Positions 1-48,240 of a stretch of DNA of 48,240 nt are shown piece after piece. Origin of the DNA: Terriglobales bacterium. GTDB taxonomy: Bacteria > Acidobacteriota > Terriglobia > Terriglobales > Acidobacteriaceae. Every line of letters starts with the position of its first letter. Within the stretch, counting starts at the first letter, position 1. Location: assembly GCA_035572845.1 (NCBI GenBank), contig DATNAF010000086.1, positions 1 to 48,240 on the forward strand. Direction: 5' to 3'. Position numbers and translations under genes: made by a program. Under the pieces are notes generated by a model. That model did no database searches. It saw nothing but the letters and a program-made list of their open reading frames with translations, and was not told where the DNA came from.

Positions 1-491
1 CGCCCCCAGCCGTTCGTCTGGTAAACCCCAGCCATGCCATCGGAAGGTTCACCCATATCCGCGAAGGTGTCATTGGAAGCCGTTTCACGTTCCCAGCAGC
101 GCACCACCTGAAAGACGCCAGCAGGCAATGCATACGAGGCGTGCCATTCCGTCCCATCAAAGTATCCGTTGGTCCCGATTGCCACCTGCACGGAAGGATC
201 GGCCACCTGCAAGCCCTGTGGCCCATTGATCGGCGGGATGCCCGAGATGATGTAGTTGTCCGTAATCAGCATCGGCGCATTCTGAAGCCGCAACTGTCTA
301 CATAGTTCACGAACGGCTGAATTGAAGAAATTGGCCATCGTGACGCTAATACCCAGATTATCGACAAGAATCTGGCCTTCGCCGATGGTGTTTGTAGCTC
401 CAGCCATGTCATCCCGCACATCCGAACGCACGAGGTTTGTGATGGTCTGGATGCTAGGATAGCTGGTAACGTCAACGAGTACAGTGGGCAT
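1..491 (-). CDS. 5' part (first 163 codons, runs off the window start) of a second, diverged allele of the 276-aa virion-module protein encoded at 47404..48234
   Basis: ATG at 491..489. The translation MPTVLVDVTSYPSIQTITNLVRSDVRDD... differs from the 47404..48234 product at only 2 residues (I/V and D/G) despite 35 nt differences. Confidence 0.85.
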   Translation of the reverse strand, partial: MPTVLVDVTSYPSIQTITNLVRSDVRDDMAGATNTIGEGQILVDNLGISVTMANFFNSAVRELCRQLRLQNAPMLITDNYIISGIPPINGPQGLQVADPSVQVAIGTNGYFDGTEWHASYALPAGVFQVVRCWERETASNDTFADMGEPSDGMAGVYQTNGWG

Positions 492-497
492 AATTTT
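1..497. repeat. Left copy of a diverged long direct repeat (partner 47744-48240)
   Basis: Hand alignment at offset 47,743. Positions 1-137 are identical; I count 35 substitutions and no indels between 138 and 486. Confidence 0.9.
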
Positions 498-565: not shown

Positions 566-1540
566 CTAAACGTCTCTATGTATTTCCTGCGCTTCTTTGA
601 TCTTTGCGAGAAGCGTTTCCTTGGACCAGCGCAGGTCAATATCCAATTTCATAATCCCTGCTTGCTGCTGAAGTTGTTCCTTCGTTAAACCTTCAAGAAA
701 CGGTTCTTGAGGTCCGACGTTTGAAACTCTCCCACTATCCGCCCACCAGCGTTTCGGCTCCGGCACATCGTCTTTCTTCACTGCGCCAGCCAGCCACGCC
801 CGCTCCCAATCCAGTACGCAAACGCGCCCGTTGTCATAATGGAAGGCGACTCCACTCGGAACCTTGCCTCCGCAGTTCGGGCAATCAACCTTCGCCGATG
901 GCGCGCGATGCCAGTTCGATTCCACCGCAAAGTAATCCGCCGCCATGTGGTGATCGAGATTGAGGATGAATTGCAACTGGCGCGGATTCGACCGCTCCAG
1001 CCCGTCCGCTTCCTGCAAGCGGAAGCGATAGTAAGCCTCGCGTCTCGCCTCGGCTCGCCGCAACTCCTCTTCAGTCGGCTCCGCATTCATCGAAGCAAAC
1101 ACGCCCTGCCGGGTCAGGTTGCACTCACCGGAGGATAGAACGTTCTCCGGGTTCAATTCTTTGTCCTGAATCGAAAGGTCGGTGCCAGCAAAGTCCGGGT
1201 TGCAGATACCCAGCGCCACCCGCTTGGCGTTTTCAATCTTCAGCAACGGAACGCCGTTCACGTCGTCAGGGTTCAGATGCGGGATCTGGACGGGATGCTG
1301 AATCTGCATGAAGCAGTGCGAACGCTTCTCTTTGGGGCACGCCGGAATCGCCACATTGCGATAAATGCCGTTGGGCTGCATGAAAGCGCGGCGAGAGATG
1401 GTATGCAGATATACCACATACTCAGTCTTCCGCATGTTTTCCGGGTCGAGATACACCGGCGATTGTGACGCAGCCGTAAGCCCTGTGAGCTTGTTGCCGC
1501 TGGTCATTTCACCGTTACCGATGATGGTTGCTGTTGCCAT
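566..1540 (-). CDS. Hypothetical head/tail-joining region protein with a CPNCGG zinc-ribbon-like motif
   Basis: 324-aa ORF. The ATG is preceded by AGGAGG and lies 9 nt after the upstream stop. No family recognised. Confidence 0.6.
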   Translation of the reverse strand: MATATIIGNGEMTSGNKLTGLTAASQSPVYLDPENMRKTEYVVYLHTISRRAFMQPNGIYRNVAIPACPKEKRSHCFMQIQHPVQIPHLNPDDVNGVPLLKIENAKRVALGICNPDFAGTDLSIQDKELNPENVLSSGECNLTRQGVFASMNAEPTEEELRRAEARREAYYRFRLQEADGLERSNPRQLQFILNLDHHMAADYFAVESNWHRAPSAKVDCPNCGGKVPSGVAFHYDNGRVCVLDWERAWLAGAVKKDDVPEPKRWWADSGRVSNVGPQEPFLEGLTKEQLQQQAGIMKLDIDLRWSKETLLAKIKEAQEIHRDV

Positions 1541-1549
1541 TCCGTCCTC

Positions 1550-2230
1550 CTATGCTGCTAATGATTTGGTTTGGAATCCAGGCTGAACGCGCCCGAACTG
1601 TTTGAGAAAATAGCTCATCTGCTTCTGAATCAATCTCTCGCGGTCTGCAATCTGCGATGGCAGAATATGCTTTCTGCGGTCGTTATAGATCGCGTCGATG
1701 GTGCGGTCGTATTTCTTCTCTTCCGCTTCCTGCATCTCTCGGATGGCTCGCTGGCGCTCTTTCATCGTCATGCGCTGCGCTTCGACAATCGCCGGGATTA
1801 GAAGGTCGAGCACCATGCCGTCTAAGTGATAATTCAGGATGGTCATGCGCCCATCACGGAACTCCTGCGAGACGAGCTTGAATGCGACTTCGTAACGCCC
1901 CTTGTAGGGATATTCGCCGAGAGTCTGTAATCCGGTCGCATCATCGCGGTTCTCGAAGTAATAAACCGCATCGGTGTTGTAATCCTCCGGCGGATGCCAT
2001 TCGAGAATCATCCAGCACGGCTGTCCTCTACCTGAGGGTGAAGAGTTTGAGAGCATTAGTTGGCGATAGCCGAAGAAATGATCATGCGGCCAAACTCCGC
2101 CCGCGGTGTAGGTAGCCGTCTGCCCCCAGACAATCTTGAACAGCGGCTCGCCGTATTGATTGGTTCCCACGGCGCGGGTCAATCGCTGCTGGAAGCGCTT
2201 AGGGCATCGCCGACGCTCAACCTCTGGCAT
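1550..2230 (-). CDS. Hypothetical structural-module protein; start uncertain
   Basis: The longest ORF reaches 2359 but would overlap the GroES-like gene by 143 nt. The internal ATG at 2230 (MPEVERRR...) reduces the overlap to 14 nt. Confidence 0.5.
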   Translation of the reverse strand: MPEVERRRCPKRFQQRLTRAVGTNQYGEPLFKIVWGQTATYTAGGVWPHDHFFGYRQLMLSNSSPSGRGQPCWMILEWHPPEDYNTDAVYYFENRDDATGLQTLGEYPYKGRYEVAFKLVSQEFRDGRMTILNYHLDGMVLDLLIPAIVEAQRMTMKERQRAIREMQEAEEKKYDRTIDAIYNDRRKHILPSQIADRERLIQKQMSYFLKQFGRVQPGFQTKSLAA

Positions 2231-2582
2231 CGTGCCACCCGCGAACATCGTCAACCCACACCAATGCATAAGTGTTGGGTCCACCATCGTCATCAAAGCG
2301 CTTCTCTTCGGCACCATATTTGCCGAAGCAGGCCACCGTGCCAACAGGTGGTGCGCCAAACTCGCAAATCCCTACGGCAATTACTTCACCACGCTCGGAA
2401 AGCTCAACTCCGATGTCAGGCCGCGCAATCAAGCCGTCTTCCGTCACAGGTGCGAGCCGCTTTACCAATACTCGATCTCGTGCGGGGACAAAGCCCGAAA
2501 CCTTGCCATGTCGCTCAGGCGCTTCCGGCTTCTTATAGCCGCTGCTGCTGCGTTTGTCGTTGACTACGATTTCCTGCTCCAT
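2217..2582 (-). CDS. GroES/Cpn10-like co-chaperonin with an N-terminal extension
   Basis: PARDRVLVKRLAPVTEDGLIARPDIGVELSERGEVIAVG aligns by eye with GroES PLHDRVIVKR...GGIVL...RGEVLAVG. ATG at 2582 is preceded by AAGGA. Confidence 0.7.
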   Translation of the reverse strand: MEQEIVVNDKRSSSGYKKPEAPERHGKVSGFVPARDRVLVKRLAPVTEDGLIARPDIGVELSERGEVIAVGICEFGAPPVGTVACFGKYGAEEKRFDDDGGPNTYALVWVDDVRGWHDARG

Positions 2583-2762
2583 GTTCCGTCCTTTCATGGG
2601 TGGTGCTACACTAGTTTTGCAAAGGGAAATCAGACCCAAAGCAGTTATCCATGCGCTAAAGCGAGTAGGTCTGGACCGCATGTCTACCGATGCACATACA
2701 AGCCCTCTTATGAGGGCTTTGTTGTTAATGAAAGAGGGCGGATTTCACCGCCCTCCGGTTGA

Positions 2763-4247: not shown

Positions 4248-5504
4248 TCAGCGCCATTGCCGGATACCGCCAGCCTTCAGTGGGGCCTTCCCAGCAAGAA
4301 TCATGTCGCTCAAATCCTTGAAGCCTTGCTTCTTCGCCACTGCAACTCCTTTGGGCGAATAATCAATCTCACTGGGACTAGGCTCTTTGCCGCGTGTTAC
4401 GCCATTCGTGATCGGCGTTGCCGTTGCATTCGGAGTCTTTACCGCCCCATTCTTCAACTGATGCCCATACCAGAACTTCGCTCGTGCCTTTGCTGCTTCT
4501 TCGGCGCGAACTTCCGTCTCGCCCTTGATATAGGAGGTGGCCGCGTCCATGCCTTGCCGGTACTTCGCATTGGCGATGGTCTTGTATGTCTCATCGGCGT
4601 TGCGCTCATCCTGCAAATGCTTCCACGTATCCGCACGCAATGCCTGATACTGCGCTTGGCTCAATCCCAGCTTCGCAACAATGGGCTTGAGGTACTTGTC
4701 GATGACTGGCCCAGCGTGAGAGACCACATCGTTGTAGGCGCGGTCTGTAGCCTGTGCGCTCTCGCCGTTCTTGCGCTCTTCCAACTCTCGCTGTAACTGT
4801 TCGACTCGTGGATCGGTCTTCGGCTCTGCCTGTGTCCCTTGACGCTGGGAAGAAAACCACTGTGCAAGCTTTGCTGCCAATGCGTCGCCCTTGGCACTGT
4901 CTCCACTCTGGTACAAGCCGACCATCTGATCGAATGCTTCGGGGAACCCGCTGTTATCGAAGAACTTTACCGCATGAGGTACGACTGCCTTCGCATACTC
5001 CTGAGGGTTACGCTTCTCCATCTCGGCGAAGATGAGCGGAGCCAGCTTCGCCATCCCCTGCGGAGCCTCGTCCCACATCCGCGTATTGACAGCAGGGTCT
5101 CCAGCCTCTAGCTGCTGGTCAATCTGCTGCACTTCTGAAAGCGTTGCCTGAACGCCAGCCAAGCCTTCTCGTCCACCGAAAGTGTCAACCAGCGTCTTGA
5201 CTTCGCGGGCCTCGCGGACAGTCGGAAATACCTTCTCGTAGGCTCCGACCTTGCCAACGCTGTTCGTGAGCGCCTGAGCATCTGCAAGTAGACTAGCCTT
5301 CTCGTTCGGGTCGGCTACCCCCTCGGCTTGGCTCTTGAGGGCGGCAATCCGCTTGCGTAGAGCATCCGGCTGTCGCCTACCGTCAAGCTTATCCGCTTCT
5401 GGTTTTTCGGCTTCCTTCGTTTCAACTGGTACCGCATCTACAAAAGATTCCGCTCCATCGACTACTGGCGCTTCTGCTACCGCTACTGCTCCGTCATCTG
5501 ACAT
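4248..5504 (-). CDS. Putative scaffolding protein
   Basis: 418 aa, highly charged with helical-looking A/E/K/Q-rich composition. Lies between the portal-size gene and the capsid-size gene. Confidence 0.55.
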   Translation of the reverse strand: MSDDGAVAVAEAPVVDGAESFVDAVPVETKEAEKPEADKLDGRRQPDALRKRIAALKSQAEGVADPNEKASLLADAQALTNSVGKVGAYEKVFPTVREAREVKTLVDTFGGREGLAGVQATLSEVQQIDQQLEAGDPAVNTRMWDEAPQGMAKLAPLIFAEMEKRNPQEYAKAVVPHAVKFFDNSGFPEAFDQMVGLYQSGDSAKGDALAAKLAQWFSSQRQGTQAEPKTDPRVEQLQRELEERKNGESAQATDRAYNDVVSHAGPVIDKYLKPIVAKLGLSQAQYQALRADTWKHLQDERNADETYKTIANAKYRQGMDAATSYIKGETEVRAEEAAKARAKFWYGHQLKNGAVKTPNATATPITNGVTRGKEPSPSEIDYSPKGVAVAKKQGFKDLSDMILAGKAPLKAGGIRQWR

Positions 5505-9588: not shown

Positions 9589-9707
9589 TGCTCCACCCCA
9601 GCAGCCAACAGAAGCCGCACAACCTCGATCTGGTCGTCCTTCGTCATCCGATAGCGCGACATGATAGCGGCAGCCTTCATCACTTCGTTGTTGATGTCTA
9701 TTCCCAA
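9510..9707 (-). CDS. Small hypothetical protein (65 aa)
   Basis: ORF overlapping the TerL stop by 10 nt. Confidence 0.4.
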   Translation of the reverse strand: MGIDINNEVMKAAAIMSRYRMTKDDQIEVVRLLLAAGVEHCLQEQEKVGSGNLQTIERTYGGLVH

Positions 9708-11266
9708 TGTGCTGGCCTCCGCTCTTCCGCCCGTCTCAATCGGCTGTCTCGTTCCATCGTCAGCTTGTACTGCAATAGGCTGCGTTCAGCGATACTGTTC
9801 GTCGCCGCCAACTTATCGCGGTCTGTCTCTTCCTGCGTCTTGCTCTGTGTATACGCACAGAAGCTCATCGCCAGCGTATCTCCCAAATCGGGAGAAGCCA
9901 GCCCGCGCTTCTTCATATCTTCCTTCTTCTCAAGCTGAATCTGGTTCTTGGCTGAGAAGTAATACTCCGGTCCCGTTAGATCAGACTCCAGTTCAGGGTC
10001 GTCTGGAATCTGCGCAGTCGCCAGCCAATCCCGCATCGCGCCCCACATGTTAGCGCGGTAGTTGAAGTACATGAACGCATCGTTCGGAGCTGCGCCGCCG
10101 TGAAACTCCATCAGTCGCCGTGCAGGGTTGGCGTTGAACCAAGCCGTCATGTACTCGCGGACGTAATCGACTACACCACCGCCTACGCCGTCGCCATCAA
10201 TCACAGTGGTGCGCGGATCGTGCTCTTTCATTCGCTGCATGACGCGGTTGGCTGTCTGAACCGTGCTCAACTCGCGTAATTTATCGAGGATCGTGAACTT
10301 TGGCCCCTGGCGAATTCCGATGATCGTCTGGTCATCGCCGAACCGCGCCACATCGCAAATCAGTATCTTCCAGTGCGATTCATACTTCTCAGGTGCAAGC
10401 TTTCGGTTCCTTGCCGCTGAGACTACATCCCCAGCAATAAACTGAGTGCTGCCCGCTCTAGGAAACTCACCTCTGACTCGTACACGAACGAAGTCTGAGT
10501 CTTCGCCGTAGTCGGCAACCCACTTGTCGAGCTGGACCTTGTTTGTCCCTTCGATTCCTCGACTGTCAATCTGGCAGGTCCGCCAGCGGTGCTTGTATCG
10601 TCCAAAACATTCTCGGAAGCGTCCGGCGTTCTTTGTGGGGTTACCAAAAGCAATCCAGATGATCTCCGTGCCTTCGTCTGTCAGCGCTCCTTCAGTGACT
10701 TCCCAGATGGAGTCTGCGATGGCGCTCGCTTCATCGTAGATAACGACGATCCGCTTACCTTTGTTGTGCAAGCCAGCGAAAGCTTCGGTATTGTTTTCAC
10801 TCCAAGGAATGCGATCAATTCGCCACTGCCTTTCATGCGCTTTCTCTTTGACTGAAATCGTCGTAGCGCCAATGTTCCACCAGTGCGAAGTAATCGCCAG
10901 CCGTGTCCACTTACAAATCTCAGGCCAAGTCTTTGTTGCGAGCTGGCTCTCAGTATTCGCCGTCACAACGATCCGGCAGTCTTCGCAAGTGTCCTTTGCC
11001 CAACTGCACACCATCGCAATCAGAGCCGTCTTGCCAATTCCGTGGCCAGACGATACCGCCAGTTCCAATGGGGTGAACCTGGAGTCTGACTTCAGGTGTT
11101 CGCCGATAACGGAAAGAATCTCGCGCTGCCACTGTCGCGGTCCGGCCGCGTCCTCTAGTTCACCTTCCAGCCAAGGGAAAGCATAGCGTGTATATCCAAG
11201 GGGGTCAGCGGAAAAATTTCCGATATCTTGGATCAGCTCTTGTTCAGGCGTTGCGCTTGCGAGCAC
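9698..11266 (-). CDS. terL: Terminase large subunit
   Basis: Walker A-like GHGIGKTA and Walker B-like IVVIYDEAS. Size and position after TerS fit. GTG start with GGAGG 9 nt upstream. Confidence 0.9.
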   Translation of the reverse strand: MLASATPEQELIQDIGNFSADPLGYTRYAFPWLEGELEDAAGPRQWQREILSVIGEHLKSDSRFTPLELAVSSGHGIGKTALIAMVCSWAKDTCEDCRIVVTANTESQLATKTWPEICKWTRLAITSHWWNIGATTISVKEKAHERQWRIDRIPWSENNTEAFAGLHNKGKRIVVIYDEASAIADSIWEVTEGALTDEGTEIIWIAFGNPTKNAGRFRECFGRYKHRWRTCQIDSRGIEGTNKVQLDKWVADYGEDSDFVRVRVRGEFPRAGSTQFIAGDVVSAARNRKLAPEKYESHWKILICDVARFGDDQTIIGIRQGPKFTILDKLRELSTVQTANRVMQRMKEHDPRTTVIDGDGVGGGVVDYVREYMTAWFNANPARRLMEFHGGAAPNDAFMYFNYRANMWGAMRDWLATAQIPDDPELESDLTGPEYYFSAKNQIQLEKKEDMKKRGLASPDLGDTLAMSFCAYTQSKTQEETDRDKLAATNSIAERSLLQYKLTMERDSRLRRAEERRPAHWE

Positions 11267-11774
11267 GGCTGATAGCCTCCGCCAGTGATTCCAGGCCAGA
11301 CACTTCGACCTTATCCTTGTAGAGCGAGTGGTATCGCATCAGCTTGTCTAGTGCTGCACCCTTGTCCGCTAACTTCACCTTTTTTAGCGTGCCGATGATT
11401 GACTTCTGCTCGCCTTCGCCTGCGTCCCATATATCTGAAACTTCCAGTCCAGCAATACAAGCCGCAGAATCGTCATCGAGCTTATCGATCTGCTTTAGTG
11501 AGCCATCGGGCTCAAATAGATTTCTAACGTCAAGGAACGCTAAGCGACCGACCTCGTTCAGCGTTCTTTCGACCGATATGTCGAGCTTCGTCATGATTTT
11601 TTCGGTCTTTTTGCTGATAACTTCAGCCACCTTGACATTTACCAGCAAGCGCGCAGCTTGCGTATCAGCAGTCTTCTTGCTGTAACCTGCTGATATTGCA
11701 GCCTTTGTCGCGTTCAATCCATTAGCGAGATATTCCGCGATGAATCTTTTCTGTTTAGGGGATAAATCCGACAT
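11244..11774 (-). CDS. terS: Terminase small subunit (Terminase_2-like)
   Basis: LSPKQKRFIAEYLANGLNATKAAISAGYSKKTADTQAARLLVNVKV matches the characteristic TerS N-terminal HTH. ATG at 11774; an alternative GTG lies at 11783. Confidence 0.9.
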   Translation of the reverse strand: MSDLSPKQKRFIAEYLANGLNATKAAISAGYSKKTADTQAARLLVNVKVAEVISKKTEKIMTKLDISVERTLNEVGRLAFLDVRNLFEPDGSLKQIDKLDDDSAACIAGLEVSDIWDAGEGEQKSIIGTLKKVKLADKGAALDKLMRYHSLYKDKVEVSGLESLAEAISRARKRNA

Positions 11775-11823
11775 TGGCGTCACGCTTGGGGCCAGTCTGG
11801 GAACATCAATTTCCCTCCGTTGA

Positions 11824-20175: not shown

Positions 20176-20879
20176 ACCACCTCCGTCTCTGTCCAGGAAA
20201 CTTTATTCGCTAGATCGGCGTCCGCCTTTGCCAACTCTGCGGCAACGAATGCTTCTGCCTCCTCGCGGGCCTTCTTGCGATTTGCCTCCGCTTGAGCTTC
20301 CATCTCCTTCAGCAGCTTGCCGTGCTCAAGTAATTCATCACCACTCCAGAAGCGTATGTTTCCTGCTACAGGCAACTCTTTCGAGCAGTGTGGGCAGGCA
20401 AGCATCTGCGGGGTGGTGTCGATCTCCTTGGGCTTCTGAAGATGGTATTTCTCCTCCAAAGACTTCACTGACTCGGACCACTCCGCTTTCGACACGTAGA
20501 GTTCGGGATGAGCCTTCGAGTGCGCAATCTGCGCATTGATCTTGTCCAGAGCCGCTCTTGGATTCGCTGAGGTCGCGCTAATCTCCTCACACGCGTTCTC
20601 AATCTGGTTCGGCGTGGGGAAGAAGTCATGGCTACGGAGTGCCTTCCAGAGTCCGGCCTCGAAACGCTTCATCCCCTGTGACTGGGCTAGTTCCTCCCAA
20701 GCCTTCAGGTACACATCCGGCGTCCCCTCCGGGAGCGTCTGATTGGGGTAGTAGTCCCTCGCTTGCTGCATCAACGCCCCCAGTGCGAAGACCGATTCGT
20801 CGGGCAACTGCGGCTTGGATCGCGTCGTCCGAAGTTCGTTTTCGTTCGGTTGCAGCATCAACTCGCTGATTCGTTCCAT
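20172..20879 (-). CDS. Replication-module hypothetical protein
   Basis: ATG at 20879 preceded by GGGAG. An in-frame TGA lies 3 nt upstream. Sits directly downstream of the initiator-like gene. Confidence 0.55.
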   Translation of the reverse strand: MERISELMLQPNENELRTTRSKPQLPDESVFALGALMQQARDYYPNQTLPEGTPDVYLKAWEELAQSQGMKRFEAGLWKALRSHDFFPTPNQIENACEEISATSANPRAALDKINAQIAHSKAHPELYVSKAEWSESVKSLEEKYHLQKPKEIDTTPQMLACPHCSKELPVAGNIRFWSGDELLEHGKLLKEMEAQAEANRKKAREEAEAFVAAELAKADADLANKVSWTETEVV

Positions 20880-21660
20880 GGTTCACTCCCTGTGGTTTCC
20901 CAAATTGATCCAACGGCCCGTTGAGGTAATCCAGCGTCCTCGCCAGCCATGCTCTAGGCCGGTCTGAGTGGTTCACAAGCGACTTGTGCCGGTTCTGTAG
21001 GCAGGTCGTGAAGGTTTCCATCTTGAGGTCAGGAGAAGCCGCCAGAAGGCTAGAAAGCTGCTTTGCTTCGCTGGCGTCCCACGGCATTTGTACCGATGGG
21101 TTATGCCTATCCCAGTACTTCGCCGTAGCTCCCTTGAAAATCACATGCCGGGGATCAGCGCCCCGCGCTTGTCGCGGGGAAGTATTTCTCTTCTCTTCTT
21201 TGCTCTGCTCTGCTCTGCTCTGCTCTGCTATATGGCGTTCGCCAGCGGGTGTCTGGCGTTCGCCAGCGGGTGTCTGGCGTTCGCTAGAATCATTCTGGCG
21301 TTCGCTAGGCAGTTGCTTGGCGTTCGCCAGCTTTGCGATGGCACCTGCCTGCCCATTCTTGGCGTTCGCCACACGCTTACAGTCGGTCGTCGTGCGCATC
21401 GTATCCATCTTCGCGTTCACTAAACCGCTCTCCGTAACTTCCCAGCATGGTTCGATTTGCGGCCAATACATCTCAAACTCTTCCAGGCTGCAACCGCAAA
21501 TATCGGCGAGTTCTTCGTGATCCAAGGGCAACGATCCTTCAGCCCAGAACTCATCCAGTAACTCGCGGTACAGGCCCTTTGCTTGCCAGCTCATTCTCTG
21601 GACGCGCCGGTTAGCTCTGTAGTCGCGCCAGTGCCATTTGTAGTAGGGGAGTGGTTCCAA
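20632..21660 (-). CDS. DUF1376 (YdaU-like) replication initiation-associated protein carrying internal iterons; C-terminal end uncertain
   Basis: LPYYKWHWRDYRANRRVQRMSWQAKGLYRELLDEFW resembles the DUF1376 N-terminus. TTG at 21660 with GGGAGAAGG upstream. The last 248 nt overlap the next gene out of frame. Confidence 0.65.
   Translation of the reverse strand: MEPLPYYKWHWRDYRANRRVQRMSWQAKGLYRELLDEFWAEGSLPLDHEELADICGCSLEEFEMYWPQIEPCWEVTESGLVNAKMDTMRTTTDCKRVANAKNGQAGAIAKLANAKQLPSERQNDSSERQTPAGERQTPAGERHIAEQSRAEQSKEEKRNTSPRQARGADPRHVIFKGATAKYWDRHNPSVQMPWDASEAKQLSSLLAASPDLKMETFTTCLQNRHKSLVNHSDRPRAWLARTLDYLNGPLDQFGKPQGVNHGTNQRVDAATERKRTSDDAIQAAVARRIGLRTGGVDAASEGLLPQSDAPGGDAGCVPEGLGGTSPVTGDEAFRGRTLEGTP
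21202..21226. repeat. Pentanucleotide microsatellite (GCTCT)x5 inside the replication gene
   Basis: Read directly: gctctgctctgctctgctctgctct. Confidence 0.9.
21233..21371. repeat. Iteron array (putative origin of replication): six TGGCGTTCGCYA repeats
   Basis: Copies start at 21233, 21254, 21275, 21296, 21318 and 21360, giving spacings of 21, 21, 21, 22 and 42 bp. The first two 21-mers are identical. Confidence 0.75.
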
Positions 21661-21661
21661 G

Positions 21662-21904
21662 TTAGGCTGCCTTCTCCCTTTCCAACTCAATCCGATACTC
21701 AAAATAAGATGTACCCTTGCGGCGTCTCTTCTTCAGGTCGTGCTTGCCCCACGATTCTTTTCTCAGATCCCGCATCCGAGCCGTGCAAGCCTCAGCAGCT
21801 ACGTGGCAGCCCGCAAGCTGTAACTGAAGACGAACCTCGTGCGGGGCGTACCAGTGCTCTCGGCTGAGTAAATCCAGGATGACTTGCTGCGCTGTGCGGG
21901 GCAT
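21662..21904 (-). CDS. Small winged-helix-like DNA-binding protein candidate
   Basis: ATG at 21904 shares one nt with the upstream TGA. Basic C-terminus. Functional assignment is weak. Confidence 0.4.
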   Translation of the reverse strand: MPRTAQQVILDLLSREHWYAPHEVRLQLQLAGCHVAAEACTARMRDLRKESWGKHDLKKRRRKGTSYFEYRIELEREKAA

Positions 21905-24407: not shown

Positions 24408-24873
24408 AGGGCCTCCGCTAGCTTCTTCATGTCAGCCAAAGCCTCTGCGTTGGAGCAATAAAAGTCGGGAACCTTTTCCAGATGCGGATCGCTTGCGAGG
24501 TAAATCATTGCGGCTGCGGCTGGAGTTCCCACTGCCCACTCCATAGCGCGCCCAGCGTCACCTGCGAGCGTCACTACCCACCCGGCGCGGCAATGTGTTG
24601 TGTCGCAGATGTGCCAACTGCCCATATCAAGAGCGTTCGGCTTGCTTACCGCCTCGAAAACTGCTTGGTGTATGTTGGCAATCACGGGGACACCCTTAAG
24701 TCCGTCACGGAGGTCAGCGCCACTGAGGTCAGCGCGCCACTGAGGTCAGCGCCACGGAGGACAGCGCCACGGAGGGACTTCTTCGCTTCGAGAGCCGCCT
24801 TGACGACTTCGAGCACAGTCTTAGCGCCTTCCAACGCGAAGATGACGCTACCGAAATATGTTTTGATTTCCAT
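24404..24873 (-). pseudogene. Pentapeptide-repeat protein split into 63-aa and 93-aa ORFs by a 2-nt insertion in a 15-nt tandem repeat
   Basis: Repeat units at 24713-24727, 24728-24744 (17 nt, extra GC), 24745-24759 and 24760-24774. Removing 2 nt gives LRGAV LRGAD LSGAD LSGAD LRDGL in frame with the downstream ORF (VIANIHQAVF...). Confidence 0.6.
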
Positions 24874-24989
24874 TACTCATCCTCCAGGTCTTCATCCGTC
24901 GGTTCGTCATCGACATCGCCACCTAAGCCGGGGATAGGAGGCTCGGGCGGGTTGAATTGGCTATCGTAATCAGGGGGTAGTCCGAACAT
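24873..24989 (-). CDS. Small, very acidic protein (38 aa), not in the ORF track
   Basis: One-nt TAATG overlaps at both ends. Contains ...GGDVDDEPTDEDLEDE. Confidence 0.35.
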   Translation of the reverse strand: MFGLPPDYDSQFNPPEPPIPGLGGDVDDEPTDEDLEDE

Positions 24990-26594: not shown

Positions 26595-27701
26595 TTATGC
26601 AGATGCGTACTGAGGCAGCAATCGCACCGAGGAAACAGGCTTTTTGAGCCATACATCCTGCGCCGCCTGCCGTTTCGCCTGCATACTGATCGTCGTGTAA
26701 TGCTGTTGCATCCGCGGACTCATCTGACCCGCAAACGCCATAATTGTAGAAATCGGAGTGCCCTTCTCCGCCATTCTCGTTATCGCTGTATGGCGCATAT
26801 CGTAGGGCGTTAGCCAGAGGATTTGAGACTTATCCCTGATTTTATTCCATGTCCCCTTGATGCAGTGCTTGGTCATGGGCCGTGTCACGTCAAGGTCGCC
26901 GCGCCTGGAATTACTGCCAAAAGGTAACCAATAATGTTCAGGTCTCCGGCATCCAAAATCAAAAGCTCGCCGCAGCAAAAACTCAGTCGATTCCCGTATC
27001 TCGTCGCTCTCAAGAGGGATCGTCCGATTGCGAAACTTGTTTTTCGACGCCTCCGGCCCCACCCTGAAAGTCCAATGCCGCAGACTTATGTCTACCAAGC
27101 GCCCTTTTCTTATTTCAATAGTGCTCGCGCACGTTTCGAGGGCCACCCTAGAGTAGTGGTACACCCAAAGCCATTCTTCATCCCACAGGCAGGATTGCAG
27201 CCAATGGGCTTCCTGTTCCGGGTCCATCGCTCTCGGCACATCGCTGTACTGCAACGGGAGCTGATCGAAGGCTCCGTCTAAATCATCTGTCCATACGTGC
27301 GCCGCTCGCATCATCCGCAACAAGAGCCCTACCTCTTTGTGTATCCGATTCTGGCCGCATTTCTTTTTCCATCCACCCCGGCAATTGGCTCTGTCATCCT
27401 GATATTGGCGGATACTGCCGTCGTGTATCTGATTTAGTTTGAATGGGCCAAAGAACTTCTCGAGTGCCCAGGCATATTCACGGTAGGTCTCTTCGCTGCT
27501 TTCCGCGATATAGCGCACACTGGTCTCAGAGCGCTCCCCAATCAATCTCGCTTCAAGCCACATCTCAAATGCGGGCTGAAAATATTGATCGGCGAGCTTT
27601 TCTTCGGAACGCACAAGGCTCCGCGACAGACACCCCGGACAATCAGGTCCGTGCCTTGGAGTGTGGTCAGTCATTTTCGGCAGAGAGGGAAAACAAGACA
27701 A
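26595..27701 (-). CDS. int: Tyrosine recombinase / phage integrase
   Basis: C-terminal catalytic box LTPYDMRHTAITRMAEKG...AFAGQMSPRMQQHY. Adjacent to the tRNA-derived core. Confidence 0.9.
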   Translation of the reverse strand: MSCFPSLPKMTDHTPRHGPDCPGCLSRSLVRSEEKLADQYFQPAFEMWLEARLIGERSETSVRYIAESSEETYREYAWALEKFFGPFKLNQIHDGSIRQYQDDRANCRGGWKKKCGQNRIHKEVGLLLRMMRAAHVWTDDLDGAFDQLPLQYSDVPRAMDPEQEAHWLQSCLWDEEWLWVYHYSRVALETCASTIEIRKGRLVDISLRHWTFRVGPEASKNKFRNRTIPLESDEIRESTEFLLRRAFDFGCRRPEHYWLPFGSNSRRGDLDVTRPMTKHCIKGTWNKIRDKSQILWLTPYDMRHTAITRMAEKGTPISTIMAFAGQMSPRMQQHYTTISMQAKRQAAQDVWLKKPVSSVRLLPQYASA

Positions 27702-27840
27702 CAGGTTGATCGTGGCCCAAGGTCGTTATCTCCGTGGCGTCACAGACCGGGCAGTTTAGGTGGTTCAGTGTGTGTTGGGCATAGCGGGAATCATCTTGTC
27801 CGGCGTGCGGAGGTTCGTCTATGACTTTTATCATAGGGAA

Positions 27841-27905
27841 GTGATATCACATTGATATATGCCATGCATTATTAAGTTGACATAAGTTACCAAAGAGATA
27901 TCTTA
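27841..27905 (+). promoter_or_regulatory. Operator-like palindromes and candidate promoter upstream of the first RHH gene
   Basis: GTGATATCAC at 27841-27850, TGATATAT at 27853-27860, ATGCAT at 27864-27869, TTGACA at 27877-27882 and AGATATCT at 27896-27903. The ATG follows at 27911, so the transcript may be leaderless. Confidence 0.3.
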
Positions 27906-27910
27906 GTGTT

Positions 27911-28087
27911 ATGCCCGCTAATAAGAAGAGCATCAAGGCCGTCCTTGTACGATTTAGTGAAGAAGAATTTGCCGCCGCCGAATGGCTCAAGAACAAAACC
28001 AGGCGATCTCGCACAAACGCCGTCAAGTGGGCCGTTCTAAAGACGGCGGAGGATTTGGGATATATGGCGAAGTGTAAAGGGAGGTAA
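27911..28087 (+). CDS. Ribbon-helix-helix (CopG/Arc-like) protein, 58 aa, not in the ORF track
   Basis: KAVLVRFSEEEFAAAEWLKNKTRRSRTNAVKWAVLKTAE fits a beta-strand/helix/helix RHH pattern. Confidence 0.55.
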   Translation: MPANKKSIKAVLVRFSEEEFAAAEWLKNKTRRSRTNAVKWAVLKTAEDLGYMAKCKGR

Positions 28088-28119
28088 TCATTGCGGTTAC
28101 GAATGTAATGCGTTTGTAC

Positions 28120-28146
28120 TGACAGGTCAATGACAAATCACTGACG
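28120..28146 (+). promoter_or_regulatory. Three TGACR direct repeats at 11-bp phasing upstream of the second RHH gene
   Basis: TGACA at 28120, TGACA at 28131 and TGACG at 28142. Confidence 0.3.
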
Positions 28147-28188
28147 TTGTAGGGGTTTCGTCATTGTATCGGCTACAACTTTAGAGGA

Positions 28189-28341
28189 ATGTCAAAGCCG
28201 AGAACGTGTCTTCTTCAAGTTCGTATGCCCATCCAAGAGCGCAAAGAGCTTAGAATCTTAGCTGCCAGCCGGGGATTGAGTATGTCATCGTATGTTCGTT
28301 CGGTCATCAAAGAGAAGCTCGAAAAGCAGCCGCTTAAATAA
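28189..28341 (+). CDS. Ribbon-helix-helix (CopG-like) protein, 50 aa, not in the ORF track
   Basis: LLQVRMPIQERKELRILAASRGLSMSSYVRSVIKEKL is a typical RHH pattern. AGAGGA lies just upstream of the ATG. Confidence 0.55.
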   Translation: MSKPRTCLLQVRMPIQERKELRILAASRGLSMSSYVRSVIKEKLEKQPLK

Positions 28342-28393
28342 GATCGCGCCCCATCCGAATACAGGGCGCGGGAGGAAGTAGAATTGAGAGATT

Positions 28394-28469
28394 GCGAGAC
28401 TAGCTCAACGGATAGAGCGGCTTCCTTCTAAGAAGATGGTTCGAGGTTCGATTCCTCGGTCTTGCACCA
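28394..28469 (+). tRNA. tRNA-Arg (anticodon TCT, reads AGA), CCA encoded
   Basis: Hand-folded cloverleaf: acceptor GCGAGAC/GTCTTGC, D arm GCTC..GAGC, anticodon loop CTTCTAA, T arm CGAGG-TTCGATT-CCTCG. 76 nt. Confidence 0.85.
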
Positions 28470-28470
28470 A

Positions 28471-28547
28471 GCGAGTGTACGCAAACAGGCAAAGCGGCCG
28501 GATTTAAAACCCGGCGTTTGTAGGTTCGATTCCTACCTCTCGCACCA
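28471..28547 (+). tRNA. Atypical tRNA: anticodon TAA (UUA/UUG) if the loop is 7 nt, short variable loop; isotype uncertain
   Basis: Good T arm (GTAGG-TTCGATT-CCTAC) and encoded CCA. The acceptor has a T-T mismatch. The anticodon stem is CCGGA/CCCGG with an A-C mismatch and loop TTTAAAA. The alternative perfect stem GCCGG/CCGGC gives a 9-nt loop. 77 nt. Confidence 0.65.
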
Positions 28548-28554
28548 AGGTTTT

Positions 28555-28630
28555 GCGCTTATAGCTCAACGGTCAGAGCGGCGAACTCATAATTCGTTGG
28601 CTGGAGGTTCAAATCCTCCTGAGCGCACCA
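28555..28630 (+). tRNA. tRNA with CAT anticodon (elongator Met, or Ile2 if lysidine-modified), CCA encoded
   Basis: Acceptor GCGCTTA/TGAGCGC, D arm GCTC..GAGC, anticodon loop CTCATAA, T arm GGAGG-TTCAAAT-CCTCC. G1-C72 is paired, so it is not initiator-like. Confidence 0.85.
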
Positions 28631-28753
28631 AGTTTGTACGGCGGCGTGGATGGACACGCTATAGTCTGGTCGTTGAGTATGAACGGGAGCAGCGACTTAC
28701 CGCGAAAAGTTCATACATAGCTGGTATCAAGCCTAGCCCGCACAAAACAGGAT

Positions 28754-28775
28754 GCCCTCTTCGGAGGGCTTTTCT
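28754..28775 (+). terminator. Intrinsic terminator downstream of the tRNA cluster
   Basis: GCCCTC-TTCG-GAGGGC followed by TTTTCT. Confidence 0.7.
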
Positions 28776-28809
28776 GTGTCAGATTTCCTGAAGAAACACA
28801 TGATTCCCG

Positions 28810-29871
28810 ATGACGACCGTTTCTTTAACTGCATCCGAAGACAGTGCGCGAAGTGATGACGCGACTGAGGTTATAATTCCCGCAATGCGAAAACCGACCT
28901 TCTCTGTGGGTATTCCGACGTTCAACCAAGCTGATTTCCTTGAAGAAACGATCCTATCTCTGCTGAATCAAACACGGCCTCCGGACGAAATTGTCATCTC
29001 GGACCATCACAGCACGGATCGCACGCCAGACATTATTGCGAAGTATGAGGGGGAGGTGCGCGGGTTGAAGCCGCCGCCAGGATGCAATGTTGGTGAACAG
29101 TGGGACTTTACACTCCGCAGCCTGAGCGGGGACTGGATTACGTTGTTCAGTAGTGACGATGTGGCGAGGCCAAACTTCTGTGAGACGCTGCTGCGTGGAG
29201 CAGCTCGCCGCGAAGATGCCGTTTTAGTGCGCGCCGGGTGGGACACCATCGACGAAGCGGGGGCGTTGTTGAGTACAGAGTATCTTTTGAGCGTTAGAGG
29301 GGTTACGCTGCCGCCCACTACCCTTACCGAGCAGCGGTACGGGCCAAAGGCGTGCTTTGCGGCCTTTGCCGTGCGGCGAGACGTGCTGGAGACTTCCGGG
29401 GGATACCACAAGGGGATGGAATCGTTCGGGGACTGGCCGTTATATATGCAGGTTGCTCCATTTGGCACATTCATCTACGAAGCGGAAGTCGTCAGTGGCT
29501 ACCGCGTAGGACACGACGGCAACAAATTCCGCAAGCGCATTGGCATGTGGTTGCGCGACGAACAGCGCATGTTTTACGAGGTGATGCCGCTGGCGGCCGA
29601 CCGCGCGAAGATGTCAGACGTAGCTTGGATCGACAAGGCAAGCCGCAAAAACTTCCTCCGCTATCTTTCCGCAGCAAGCGAAGAATTCCTTGCGGAAGAG
29701 CGCGCTGAGATCGCTCCACTCTTTCAATCATGGGCAGACCGTGTGGACGGCGAAACATTGCTAAAATCCTTTGCAAATGGGAATTTCATCCGCAATCCAA
29801 TAAGTTTCGCCCAACGCGGGAAAAGCCTTATTCGTCCCTTCGCCAATAGGCTAAAGACGTTGTTGGACTGA
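28810..29871 (+). CDS. Family 2 glycosyltransferase (GT2)
   Basis: FSVGIPTFNQADFLEETILSLLNQTRPPDEIVISDHHSTDRTPDII is the typical GT2 N-terminal fold motif. An alternative start at 28885 (MRKPTFSV) is plausible. Confidence 0.85.
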   Translation: MTTVSLTASEDSARSDDATEVIIPAMRKPTFSVGIPTFNQADFLEETILSLLNQTRPPDEIVISDHHSTDRTPDIIAKYEGEVRGLKPPPGCNVGEQWDFTLRSLSGDWITLFSSDDVARPNFCETLLRGAARREDAVLVRAGWDTIDEAGALLSTEYLLSVRGVTLPPTTLTEQRYGPKACFAAFAVRRDVLETSGGYHKGMESFGDWPLYMQVAPFGTFIYEAEVVSGYRVGHDGNKFRKRIGMWLRDEQRMFYEVMPLAADRAKMSDVAWIDKASRKNFLRYLSAASEEFLAEERAEIAPLFQSWADRVDGETLLKSFANGNFIRNPISFAQRGKSLIRPFANRLKTLLD

Positions 29872-30318
29872 TTCCTCTGTCTTATAAACACCCTTAAACA
29901 TGTTCATCTCAGCCTGCCGCCGTCGAACCAGCCCCGGTATAAGCTGTCCTTTTACATGTGCCCATAGAGGAAACTGCAACGCTGCTGAAGTAAACGCACC
30001 ACTATTCACGCAGCGCAAAAGCGTGGATCGCCCCAAAGTCTCGCATCCCAGGTTGAAGGCGAAGTCAACGAGCGCATCGAATTGATTTTGATTGATCGTT
30101 CCCGTTACCTGTCGATTCACGCAGGCTACGGCATTCGCCAGGTCGTCAACAAGAAGCGCCTCAGCCTGTTCAGTGGTGATCGTCAGCCCTTCGTGAACGT
30201 CCGGACCGGTATGTCCATAACCAATCGTCCACACGCCGCCCTGGTCCCGGTAGGCGGCAAGTTTCAGACCTTCAAAACTTTTTGTCATCTCGAGCCCGGA
30301 CGGACTATACGTCATCAT
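29851..30318 (-). CDS. GH24 (T4-type) lysozyme / endolysin
   Basis: FEGLKLAAYRDQGGVWTIGYGHT carries the catalytic E...D...T pattern. ATGA overlap with the upstream gene. No signal or SAR segment. Confidence 0.9.
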   Translation of the reverse strand: MMTYSPSGLEMTKSFEGLKLAAYRDQGGVWTIGYGHTGPDVHEGLTITTEQAEALLVDDLANAVACVNRQVTGTINQNQFDALVDFAFNLGCETLGRSTLLRCVNSGAFTSAALQFPLWAHVKGQLIPGLVRRRQAEMNMFKGVYKTEESVQQRL

Positions 30319-33155
30319 CGGATCACCGCCGCGCCCGTAATGACGACAGCGCCCAGCAACGATGTTGGCACAGCGCCTAAGAACTCATACGCCCCGATGC
30401 TTGGCGGGTTGGGCCGAGTCACTCCCAGGTAATCCGCGGTGATGCCGGGGATGGTCACGCCAGCGCCGATGGGCGGGCTGGAGGATGTTAGGGTAATGGG
30501 CCAAGTTCCGTACAGGCTCCACGTTGAGGTTGTCAGCAGCGGATCGACGCAAAGCGCGTTCGTCTCGTTCGTGTTTGGGCAGGCATTCTTCTCGTGGAAT
30601 GTGTCGTTGTGATCGAAGGCCGAGCCAGCATCTAGCCAAATCGCCGCCCCCGGCGTCACGCTGGTATCCAGGTAGATGCGCTGCGGATAGTTCCCGCTTC
30701 CACCCCCCGGATAGCCGTTCGTCGCGTTGTTGAGGAAGCCCAGCGTTACATTGTTCTGGAACTTGAACGCCGGGGCGGTGCAGGGGCTGACGCACTCGAT
30801 CAGGTAGCCACCGGAAGCCGCCGTGACCAGCGTATTGAACGCCACCAGGCTGTTGTAAGCATCGCTGATGGTCACCGCCACCGCATCGTCACCAGCGCGG
30901 CAGAAGTCCGATAGCGCCGTGTTGTAGCCCGAAGGAGTACCGGGAATCGCCTGCCGCAGAGCGTTGCAGTTGTCATAAATCAGGTTGTTCGTAAAAGTGA
31001 TGGCCGATCCTCCGATCTTGGCTTGGTTGCCCATATTGCCGTAGAGAAGGGAATCGATGATCGTGACAGTCGAGCCTGCCCCATTGACGTGCAGCGCGTC
31101 CAGCCCGTCCTGCGTGTTGTAGAAGACGTTGGCGTGGTCGAAGCTAACCTGCCAGCCGGGAACACTTGCTACGGTTGTCGTGCCCCAGCAATCGCCATAT
31201 CCGCTGCTGCTATCATCCGAGCCATTGAAGAATGGGAGCGCGTCCAAGATGGGGTACTGCTCGTTGAAACCGTTCCATCCACAGGTAAAGTAGTGGTTTG
31301 TCAGAGAGCCGGTTCCGGTCGTGCCGTTTCCGCGATCCAGGTTCCAGCCAGAATTATCGTTTCCTATCAGCGAGACGCGGTTGGTCACGAACCCGTCCCC
31401 TGTCGGCCCATGCATTCCAGCCGATGCCATTCCGTGAATGTCGATGTCCTGCAAGAGAACGTTCGTCGCAGTGTTCGTGATCTCAATCCCGTTGTTGGCG
31501 TAGTCGTCCATCGGGAAAGAGGTGTTACAGTTGTTCACTGTCCCAGAACGTCCGCAGCTCGATTGGTCGGAGATGTTGAAGCACTCAATCTGCACATAGC
31601 TGCTCCCGCTGACGTTGAAAACGCCGCCCGTCCCATAGCCACCGTGAACGAATGTCTTGTCGAGTGGGTTGGTGCAGCTTGCATAGTTCTCGCCGAGGAT
31701 GCGTGTTGGCTGGCCGACCGTCCCAGACGGCACAACTGGCGCTCCAGAACCTCCGGGGTTTCCCGCTTCTCCAAGGAAGTAATCCGCCGAAGTGTTGTTT
31801 GGGCCGGAATAGCCGATGCGATAGCCGGTCGTCTGCGTGTGCGCGCCGCGAACGATCACGGTGTCGCCCCCTGCACTCGTCCATCCCCACTGAGGCGCCG
31901 CGCCACCAGCCGAATACTCGCCGTCGGCCCACAGGTAGCGGATATCCGAGAAGGCGCAGTGGCCGTTCTGCGGGTAGGCCGCACCCTTCGTCCAGGTCAC
32001 GGTGCCGTCCGTCGTCGTCGTCCCCCAGGCCGGGATGGTCACGCCGCTGGTTCCACCCGCCGTCGTTGTCTCATAGAAACCCGTGTTACCCGTAATCGTC
32101 GTTCCGGGAGCAACTACGACCCCCATCGTCCACACCGCATTGGTCGTCCCGGTATAGGCGGTGTCGGAGAGTCCATCGCACTGCCCAAAGGTGGCGGGCG
32201 CACCGTGGGCGTTGTAGCGAGTCCCCCCGTCCGGACGGACGTACCAGGTCTGTGGTCCAGGCGTGAAGTTGTCAAAGAAGACGGTGTTGCCGCCGCTGGT
32301 TCCAGGCGAGGTGCAGGTTGTCCCGTCGCACACCTGCACGTACTGCACCGTCATCGTCTGCGGGAAGGTTGCCGGGGCAGCGCCATTGCTCACCCGGTTT
32401 TGGAGCAGGATAAACATCGGATTCTGCGGGACATTTGAGGTGTAGTGTGCCGTCGAAGCCGTCCCGTCCACCGAGTAGGTGATCGAAGAATTGCTCCACT
32501 GCATCGAATAGACGTGGAAGTTGGAGATGGAACTGGAGAGTGTCTGCGACGTGTTTTGCTGCGAAGTCAGATTGGAAAACAGGTTCTGATTCGTGTTTGT
32601 GTAACTCGGCTCGATGTACTCCATGATGTCGATTTCGGCAGAGTCGCCGTTCGGCATCGTATCCGTGGACCAGTGGCAGTTGCCTACGTTGTCCCAGGTG
32701 TTGTAGACAGACTGGTACTGGCAGCCGCTGGAACTGGACAGCAACCCAGCCCCGCCCAGCAGCCAGAACGCGGGCCATCCCTTCCCAGCCTCGATGCTTG
32801 CCTGAATGGTGCAGGTTCCACTCGGGCAGCTTGTGGTAGGGCTGAAACTCGATACCGAAGCCATCGCACCCGAGAGGTACAACTGCGTTCCCTGGGTCGT
32901 ATCGGACAGCCCACAGGTGGGCGAAGTCGCGGGTTTCGTCATCGTAATGGTGAGCGCGTTTGTGGCGAAGGCGATCTTCTTGTCTGAATAGCAGCCGAGG
33001 TCGCCCGAACCAGTATCGGAGGCATGGTTGATGAGCATCCACTTTCCGTTCGCGCTGGTGGACGGCGCGCACACGTTTCCCGTGCCATCGTTCGTGCAGG
33101 CTTGGCCGAGGGCCATCGCCGAGAGCAGGAACGGGATGAAGAAGCGCAATCTCAC
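30315..33155 (-). CDS. Signal-peptide-bearing GH16 beta-glucanase domain fused to a right-handed beta-helix (pectate-lyase-like) region; putative polysaccharide depolymerase
   Basis: MRLRFFIPFLLSAMALGQA signal peptide. GH16 motifs WPAFWLLG and EIDIME. Later NGIEITNTATNVLLQDIDIHG...NRVSLIGNDNSGWNL repeats. GTGA overlap upstream. Confidence 0.75.
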   Translation of the reverse strand: MRLRFFIPFLLSAMALGQACTNDGTGNVCAPSTSANGKWMLINHASDTGSGDLGCYSDKKIAFATNALTITMTKPATSPTCGLSDTTQGTQLYLSGAMASVSSFSPTTSCPSGTCTIQASIEAGKGWPAFWLLGGAGLLSSSSGCQYQSVYNTWDNVGNCHWSTDTMPNGDSAEIDIMEYIEPSYTNTNQNLFSNLTSQQNTSQTLSSSISNFHVYSMQWSNSSITYSVDGTASTAHYTSNVPQNPMFILLQNRVSNGAAPATFPQTMTVQYVQVCDGTTCTSPGTSGGNTVFFDNFTPGPQTWYVRPDGGTRYNAHGAPATFGQCDGLSDTAYTGTTNAVWTMGVVVAPGTTITGNTGFYETTTAGGTSGVTIPAWGTTTTDGTVTWTKGAAYPQNGHCAFSDIRYLWADGEYSAGGAAPQWGWTSAGGDTVIVRGAHTQTTGYRIGYSGPNNTSADYFLGEAGNPGGSGAPVVPSGTVGQPTRILGENYASCTNPLDKTFVHGGYGTGGVFNVSGSSYVQIECFNISDQSSCGRSGTVNNCNTSFPMDDYANNGIEITNTATNVLLQDIDIHGMASAGMHGPTGDGFVTNRVSLIGNDNSGWNLDRGNGTTGTGSLTNHYFTCGWNGFNEQYPILDALPFFNGSDDSSSGYGDCWGTTTVASVPGWQVSFDHANVFYNTQDGLDALHVNGAGSTVTIIDSLLYGNMGNQAKIGGSAITFTNNLIYDNCNALRQAIPGTPSGYNTALSDFCRAGDDAVAVTISDAYNSLVAFNTLVTAASGGYLIECVSPCTAPAFKFQNNVTLGFLNNATNGYPGGGSGNYPQRIYLDTSVTPGAAIWLDAGSAFDHNDTFHEKNACPNTNETNALCVDPLLTTSTWSLYGTWPITLTSSSPPIGAGVTIPGITADYLGVTRPNPPSIGAYEFLGAVPTSLLGAVVITGAAVIR

Positions 33156-41952: not shown

Positions 41953-42519
41953 TCATGTTCTTGTCGCCTGCTTGCCAAATCCCCAACCGATTTGCGCTCC
42001 GTTATTGGAAGAAGTCCCCGAACCCGTAGAAGGGTTCCAGGTAAGCTGTGTCGTGCCCATTGTCGTGATCGGTGTAGGTGAAGTGCCGCCGTAGACAACC
42101 GGCGTTGAAGGGTCCGAACCCGGATATTGCGCAAACCCCCGCGCATACCAACTCTGCGGATTCCCGGAGGAGTCCTTCGGAGCAAGGTGGATCGGGTCAC
42201 GTGTCCGCGAAGTCCCGTAATGAATCGGATGCGCCCCGATGAATTCCTTGTTATTCGCTACTTCAACGAAGTAGTTGACGCCCTGCCGGATGGCTCCGTT
42301 GTGGTTGATGGTGATGTGCGCATATTCTCCTCCGGTCGTCACGTTCAGGCCATTGATCGGCGGGGGGGGAGCTAATCTTCCTACCGCACTTGAAGCTGTA
42401 TTATCCGCAAGCGTATTAACGCCGTTGATGATCTTCTGGAGCAGTGCCCCTTTGGTTGCGTCTTCCTGTATCCATTTTGTAAGCGCACGGCCACCGGAAA
42501 GGATGCCTTTAGCCCTCAC
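41953..42519 (-). CDS. Virion-module hypothetical protein containing a C8 tract
   Basis: GTG start in a GTGA overlap with the 1313-aa gene. PPPP is encoded by a homopolymer at 42362-42369. Confidence 0.5.
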   Translation of the reverse strand: MRAKGILSGGRALTKWIQEDATKGALLQKIINGVNTLADNTASSAVGRLAPPPPINGLNVTTGGEYAHITINHNGAIRQGVNYFVEVANNKEFIGAHPIHYGTSRTRDPIHLAPKDSSGNPQSWYARGFAQYPGSDPSTPVVYGGTSPTPITTMGTTQLTWNPSTGSGTSSNNGAQIGWGFGKQATRT

Positions 42520-48234: not shown

Positions 48235-48240
48235 AATTTT
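47744..48240. repeat. Right copy of the diverged long direct repeat (partner 1-497)
   Basis: See the left copy: 462 of 497 positions are identical by hand alignment. Confidence 0.9.

Follow-up and report, generated by a model that had tools for sequence, protein, structure and literature searches.

The window, which is the whole stretch of DNA analysed here, is one entire metagenomic contig of 48,240 bp and consists of a unit of 47,743 bp plus a 497-bp overlap that places the 5' part of one gene at both contig ends. Its standing as a whole contig follows from its 418-aa protein (4248-5504; P0121): at 90% identity this clusters with P0214, likewise of 418 aa, for which a single contig is on record, 48,240 bp in length. 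Nearly all of its genes lie on the minus strand. One unit holds a single temperate-phage gene set, with nothing duplicated besides the 497 bp and with no host gene in the window (Table 1). Read along the minus strand, TerS is followed by genes for a 522-aa protein, a portal-sized protein of 854 aa, a 418-aa protein and a 445-aa protein, which is the best-conserved structural protein and is probably the capsid protein. The sole strong match of the 522-aa protein is to phrog_5902, a family of unknown function, and its search for a sequence relative in the PDB returned none; its adjacency to TerS, its size and weak AAA-type matches make it a probable TerL. At least 590 further IMG/VR contigs carry relatives of this protein. 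The 445-aa gene is immediately followed by a Cpn10/GroES-like ORF (2217-2681, minus strand) with an E value of 0.0024, below the Pfam cut-off, and Cpn10-like matches are also on record in three relatives (L005, 7788-8135; L183, 7926-8300; L182, 7769-8113). The phage protein T4 gp31 is a co-chaperonin for capsid folding, and the Cpn10-like ORF could likewise encode such a co-chaperonin, or else a look-alike head protein. Genes for a 269-aa and then a 324-aa protein come next, followed by the 276-aa adaptor gene discussed below, whose 5' part is the repeated one.

Downstream of the adaptor gene, at the other end of the contig, stand genes for a 296-aa and a 1313-aa protein and then further tail genes, including one for a 946-aa protein with a GH16 domain. 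This distal tail protein (30315-33155, minus strand) carries the GH16 match at residues 170-273 (E 1e-9) and is probably a polysaccharide-degrading tail fibre or spike. The unit also includes a lysozyme gene, an ERF gene, a replication-type gene with a DUF1376 domain and a tyrosine integrase gene. Within the DUF1376-domain gene, at 21233-21308, there are three 21-nt direct repeats (TGGCGTTCGCCAG plus an 8-nt spacer) that look like the iterons of a lambda-type origin inside a replication-initiator gene. Tandem units of 15-16 nt (CGCCACNGAGGTCAG) were also seen at 24703-24781, within a plus-strand ORF (24482-24937). Beside the integrase gene, the stretch 27702-28393 is non-coding or holds small RHH-type ORFs; it opens an accessory region (27702-29871) between the integrase and the lysis gene that comprises these ORFs, the tRNA genes and a plus-strand GT2 glycosyltransferase gene (28810-29871) with a GtrB-like PHROG match, which could be a moron for surface-polysaccharide conversion. 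Because the integrase gene lies inside the unit, an attP-type region inside it is plausible. The phage is temperate, tailed and podovirus-like, and its host is probably of the Acidobacteriaceae type; a search of GenBank phage records gave no DNA match to the window.

Table 1. Features of the 48,240-bp window that bear on the terminal overlap and on the gene order of the phage unit.
Feature	Positions	Strand	Remarks
Left terminal overlap, allele A side	1-497	.	gapless match to 47744-48240, 462/497
Identical block, both copies	1-137 (also 47744-47880)	.	45 codons without a difference
Diverged patch	138-486 (also 47881-48229)	.	35 substitutions, 90% identity, dS 0.56, dN/dS 0.0135
Adaptor gene, allele A, 5' part (codons 1-163), cut by contig start	1-491	-	translation; ATG 491-489
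324-aa gene, immediately upstream of adaptor in conserved order	566-1540	-	only at left end
418-aa gene	4248-5504	-	
522-aa gene adjoining TerS, probable TerL	9698-11266 (within 9698-11783)	-	phrog_5902, 1.6e-75
TerS	11244-11783	-	PF03592 (Terminase_2), 7e-33
DUF1376 replication-type gene	20632-21702	-	domain match
Tyrosine integrase	26595-27701	-	PF00589, 3e-11
RHH-type ORFs	27911-28087; 28189-28341		NikA/FitA-like
tRNA-Arg(TCT), tRNA-Leu(TAA), tRNA-Met(CAT)	28394-28630		
1313-aa gene, after 296-aa gene	42516-46457	-	only at right end
296-aa gene, immediately downstream of adaptor	46457-47347	-	only at right end
Adaptor gene, allele B, complete, 276 aa	47404-48234	-	translation; ATG at 48234; predicted podovirus adaptor fold
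Right terminal overlap, allele B side	47744-48240	.	contig stops 6 nt upstream of adaptor ATG

The two ends of the window align without gaps at an offset of 47,743, with 462 of 497 positions identical (92.96%), and each of the other offsets between 47,700 and 47,800 gave at most 50% identity. An earlier reading made from the sequence alone had described this gapless match, with 35 substitutions of which 33 fall at third codon positions, and the description was borne out: 33 of the 35 lie at coordinates divisible by 3, and the mismatches comprise 26 transitions and 9 transversions. A repeat scan of the 48,240 bp returned the 497-bp overlap (family D1) as the sole long direct repeat of the window. 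Promoter, terminator and Rfam scans of the region returned nothing relevant. As its two copies stand at the ends of a complete contig, the repeat amounts to a terminal overlap, and it has in common with contigs bearing direct terminal repeats (DTRs) that it stands in direct orientation at both ends. It departs from such contigs in its 35 mismatches, which leave only the first 137 and the last 11 bases of the overlap identical.

To judge from the translations of both copies, all 33 third-position changes are synonymous. The two nonsynonymous changes, V50I (position 344) and G84D (position 241), are both conservative, and they are the I/V and D/G replacements that had been called at these positions from the sequence. 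About 24% of random single substitutions in this region would be synonymous, so that 33 or more synonymous changes among 35 has a probability of ~1e-18, and we therefore take the differences to be real biological variation. Over codons 2-118 the two copies differ with a dS of about 0.56 and a dN/dS of 0.0135. This pattern supports the earlier proposal that the copies are two real alleles of one gene under purifying selection, and neither noise nor a perfect terminal repeat. The further statement that both alleles are functional agrees with the substitution pattern, but only the right copy is complete; because the left one is cut after codon 163, its standing as a functional allele is drawn from that pattern. 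Two other sources of the differences were considered and rejected, namely sequencing error, as the substitutions are synonymous, and a diversity-generating retroelement, as the changes are synonymous and show no adenine bias. Alleles A and B are each other's nearest sequences, with the retrieved relatives reaching at most 78% DNA identity. A search among these relatives for a donor of either allele found none, A and B being ~70-78% identical to each of them.

The start codon of the repeated gene has a GGAG motif 8 nt upstream. When its product and the neighbouring proteins were compared with Pfam, PHROGs and NCBIfam, no family match was obtained; the 136 homologues of the product are metagenomic. 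An AlphaFold2 model of the 276-aa protein, built on 44 of the 136 homologues, reached a pLDDT of 78 and a pTM of 0.70. When this model was compared with the PDB by Foldseek, the top 25 matches were all chains of podovirus portal-tail, neck or tail entries (among the matches are 9k09_d, 9lc0_H, 7z47_B, 7qog_B, 7ey7_M and 5mu4_A), with a probability of 1.0, E values down to 9e-6 and TM scores of 0.45-0.63 on the target. The structures matched belong to cyanophage A4, N4, SU10, VP1, phicrAss001 and T7, and include the KP32 tail tubular protein A; the Foldseek table names the entry and not the chain, and the assignment to adaptor chains is our own reading. On the strength of these matches of the predicted fold to podovirus portal-tail and tail complexes, the repeated gene is predicted to encode a podovirus-type head-to-tail adaptor (T7 gp11 / tail tubular protein A type).

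The predicted fold resembles that of the podovirus adaptors (T7 gp11 and the A4, N4, SU10, crAss001 and KP32 chains), and, as in those phages, the gene stands between the head genes and a gene for a very large, nozzle-sized protein. Unlike these adaptors, to which it shows ~10% sequence identity, the protein of the window lacks a Pfam, PHROG or NCBIfam match; it is also longer (276 aa as against ~190-240 aa), and the phage is temperate. Conservation in the family alignment is highest over the N-terminal 118 residues, and the very low dN/dS between the alleles fits this. A recurrent contig terminus within the adaptor gene was considered as well and rejected, since two truncated adaptor homologues on long contigs, P0108 and P0111, lie mid-contig; their truncation is presumably due to a frameshift.

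Divergence between the two copies is confined to one part of the overlap. All 35 differences fall within 138-486, and 1-137 and 487-497 are identical. Expressed by codon, third positions differ at 33 of 117 sites in codons 2-118 (28%) as against none of 45 in codons 119-163 (hypergeometric P = 5e-6). In codons 119-163, relatives depart from the window at 53-64% of third positions, a share that is not below the one in codons 2-118. Thus, relatives vary freely in codons 119-163 too, and the identical block is not due to constraint at the level of sites. The junction at 137/138 marks an abrupt mosaic boundary of the recombination type, which separates an identical segment from one of a clearly diverged lineage. 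This switch in divergence, from 0% to 10%, had been missed in the sequence-only reading and is new relative to it. It points to recombination as the origin of the patch, which is most simply explained as an import by homologous recombination from a more distant lineage, kept by strong purifying selection. Variants within one population would seldom be as diverged as a dS of 0.56 implies, and the second haplotype may belong to a distinct related phage.

The gene order around the adaptor was compared with that of related loci. Nine of these share the order of a ~311-324-aa gene, the adaptor gene, a ~296-302-aa gene and a ~1300-1650-aa gene, and a homologue of the 324-aa gene precedes the adaptor gene in L001-L010. 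In the window, the corresponding order of 324-aa, adaptor, 296-aa and 1313-aa genes is restored only by joining both ends. As in DTR contigs, the unit is a complete, non-redundant genome with gene order continuous across the junction. The related genomes are, moreover, circularly permuted with respect to one another, again as expected of DTR contigs: the ends of relatives of near-unit length (43.3-48.8 kb) lie 3.7, 5.0, 8.6, 16.7, 28.4, 28.6, 28.8 and 31.5 kb upstream of the adaptor ATG. These varied ends indicate a family without fixed ends, which behaves as circular or circularly permuted. Among the matches listed (120 of the 136 adaptor homologues), none is on a contig longer than 48.8 kb, and within this set the adaptor-family phages are recovered as free, genome-length units and not inside host chromosomes. 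A search of 185,579 GTDB species genomes gave only one chromosomal match, a remnant that is degraded and 45% identical and lies in a MAG of the Acidobacteriaceae.

Several further observations were made on these relatives. Locus L008, the match in this MAG (CAVYCQ010000002.1, MFD04540.bin.1.147, 1,031,959-1,052,520), carries a fragmented portal-to-tail module of short ORFs, 31-54% identical to their counterparts; it is probably a decaying prophage and provides a host hint for the family. Three relatives, L002, L005 and L183 (43,254, 47,346 and 46,394 bp), have ends 28.4-28.8 kb upstream of the adaptor ATG, and these ends correspond to a position at ~29 kb in the window, beside the integrase/tRNA region. 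The three contigs may have been broken at the att site through the coexistence of integrated and free forms. One relative, IMGVR_UViG_3300047325_000020 (43,929 bp), was rebuilt in full by tiling, and was the only one so treated. It has no exact terminal repeat, and both of its ends lie in short tandem repeats. It shares with the window only the portal-to-tail module, at 44-81% amino acid identity, and comparison with the 522-aa probable TerL, TerS, early, lysogeny and distal tail genes of the window gave no detectable match; the modular mosaicism between the two genomes is strong. A homologue of the plus-strand ORF with the tandem 15-16-nt units stands at the very start of this relative, which seems to have broken in this tandem-repeat gene. 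The family as a whole is diverse and mosaic, and several members occur in single samples, for example ERZ26871208.

We consider it likely that the window represents a single genome with a circular map of 47,743 bp, assembled to just past one turn, whose ends derive from two co-occurring haplotypes. The circular map would correspond to a circular replicative form or to a circularly permuted, concatemer-derived molecule. An assembler going once round the circle and 497 bp further would have left the 5' part of the adaptor gene at both ends of the contig. The sample would have held at least two phage haplotypes, identical over codons 119-163 and differing over codons 2-118, and each contig end would have been built from a different one; the local divergence probably prevented closure of the circle by an exact overlap. 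We infer, that is, that the topology is circular, that two haplotypes coexisted in one sample and that the patch caused the contig to end. Viral contigs commonly acquire terminal repeats when circular genomes, or genomes replicated as concatemers, are assembled (CheckV, PMC8116208), and variation within a population is among the reasons why assemblers break contigs (COBRA, PMC10914622). The terminal duplication is most likely an ordinary, already known outcome of assembly and not a new genomic feature. Of the two origins that the sequence-only reading had put forward, a circular or concatemeric genome from a polymorphic population is favoured: the window is an entire contig with one gene set, its gene order closes across the junction as in relatives, and the contigs of relatives are permuted. 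The tandem integration of two phages gained nothing, as there is neither host DNA nor a second copy beyond the 497 bp.

A different origin of the duplication, which we think unlikely, is that one end is chimeric. The last ~360 bp of the contig (or the first) would then come from a different, related phage of the same sample that shares at least 137 identical bp, and the overlap would be uninformative on topology. Such a join would account for the abrupt rise in divergence from 0% to 10% at 137/138, the dS of the patch is at the level of different phage lineages, and the family is diverse and mosaic, single samples (ERZ26871208, for instance) containing several of its members. However, the overlap starts exactly where one gene set completes, and it runs in register and in frame up to the ATG and the ribosome-binding site. 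The 47.7-kb unit also equals the contig sizes of the relatives. A chimeric end differs from the circular-map reading mainly in whether the second haplotype belongs to the same population, and the gene order still closes on itself.

A tandem double lysogen, in which two related but non-identical prophages lie head-to-tail (attL-P1-attP-P2-attR) and the contig runs from the adaptor gene of P1 through attP to that of P2, is rather improbable. The integrase gene lies inside the unit, and the integrase-proximal region is uninterrupted, as it would be at an internal attP junction. One Acidobacteriaceae MAG has a distant, degraded relative in its chromosome, and the unit-length contigs of three relatives end by the region equivalent to the integrase/tRNA region, which hints at integrated forms. 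Against these points, the contig extends just 497 bp beyond one unit and carries no host gene, and among the matches listed every adaptor homologue is on a contig of at most one phage genome in length. For the assembler to stop here, the two prophages would have to be otherwise near-identical, which gives the same assembly graph as a circle. Moreover, attL and attR would be as abundant as attP, and a short-read assembler would then be expected to fork at the att core, whereas the contig apparently runs straight on.

Still less probable is a heterozygous terminal redundancy, that is, a single headful-packaged molecule cut from the concatemer of a mixed infection so that its ends carry different alleles. 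T4 and P22 are the classical examples of terminal-redundancy heterozygotes. Here, TerS falls in PF03592, a family that we take to include pac-type headful packagers such as SPP1, and the permuted contig starts of the relatives would fit headful packaging. But a consensus assembly is not one molecule, nothing points to single-molecule data, and the redundancy, which would amount to only 1.04% of the unit, is smaller than is usual in headful phages. Taking tandem lysogens and headful heterozygotes together, we give little credence to both alleles lying on one DNA molecule, one genome length apart, whether in a heteroallelic tandem dilysogen or at heterozygous headful ends.

The least probable origins by far are a physical DTR of the T7/N4 type and a paralogous duplication of the adaptor gene within the genome. 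The repeat is direct, terminal and 497 bp long, which is within the sizes seen for podovirus DTRs, and its gene has a podovirus adaptor fold by prediction, but the copies of a true DTR should be identical, being regenerated from one template each cycle, and here they are 7% diverged and lie inside a structural gene and not at non-coding genome ends; fixed non-coding termini common to the relatives are likewise absent, for the relatives have the gene in single copy, mid-contig and without fixed ends there, and the supposed paralogue on the left is truncated only by the contig edge.

If the map is circular, the window can be set beside several known systems. It resembles DTR contigs in that the unit is the full genome and in the cause, the assembly of a circular or concatemer-replicated genome (CheckV; PMC8116208). 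DTR contigs usually have exact repeats, often of k-mer length (55, 77, 99 and so on), whereas the overlap of the window is 497 bp long at 93% identity and its two copies come from different haplotypes. A simple k-mer overlap, as expected of a circle with one bubble, was also considered and rejected, as the identical flanks of 137 and 11 nt fit none of the lengths tried (metaSPAdes 127, MEGAHIT 141 and also 55); this misfit counts against the circular-map reading. By the 20-bp criterion that CheckV reportedly applies, a detector needing an exact match of the ends would not flag the window. The likeness to contigs broken in the manner described for COBRA is that here, too, the ends fall in a stretch that is locally polymorphic, the rest of the genome being collapsed (PMC10914622). 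Unlike such breaks, both alternative arms are on one contig, one at each end, and the maxK rule of COBRA does not account for flanks of 137 and 11 nt. Finally, the comparison extends to systems that hold their alleles together physically. In tandem polylysogens and in the redundancy heterozygotes of T4 and P22, two alleles stand one genome length apart on a single molecule. The window differs from these in being without host flanks, in a redundancy of only 1% and in being known from a consensus contig alone.

On the reading of a single circular-map genome, the genome is probably complete at 47,743 bp. The first or last 497 bp should be trimmed before genes are counted or genomes compared, and repeat detectors that rely on exact matches will miss the completeness of this genome. 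The finding would gain interest only if both alleles prove to be on one molecule. If a headful heterozygote were the true origin, the contig would be a snapshot of a mixed infection and of recombination between diverged lineages, in an uncultivated temperate podovirus that probably infects Acidobacteria. An exchange of such a patch is expected phage mosaicism and raises no new question. For the family, the two alleles would mean that two lineages of an uncharacterised group of temperate podoviruses coexist and that a patch of ~350 bp or more has been exchanged between lineages, in what is the most conserved part of the adaptor gene (dN/dS ~0.01).
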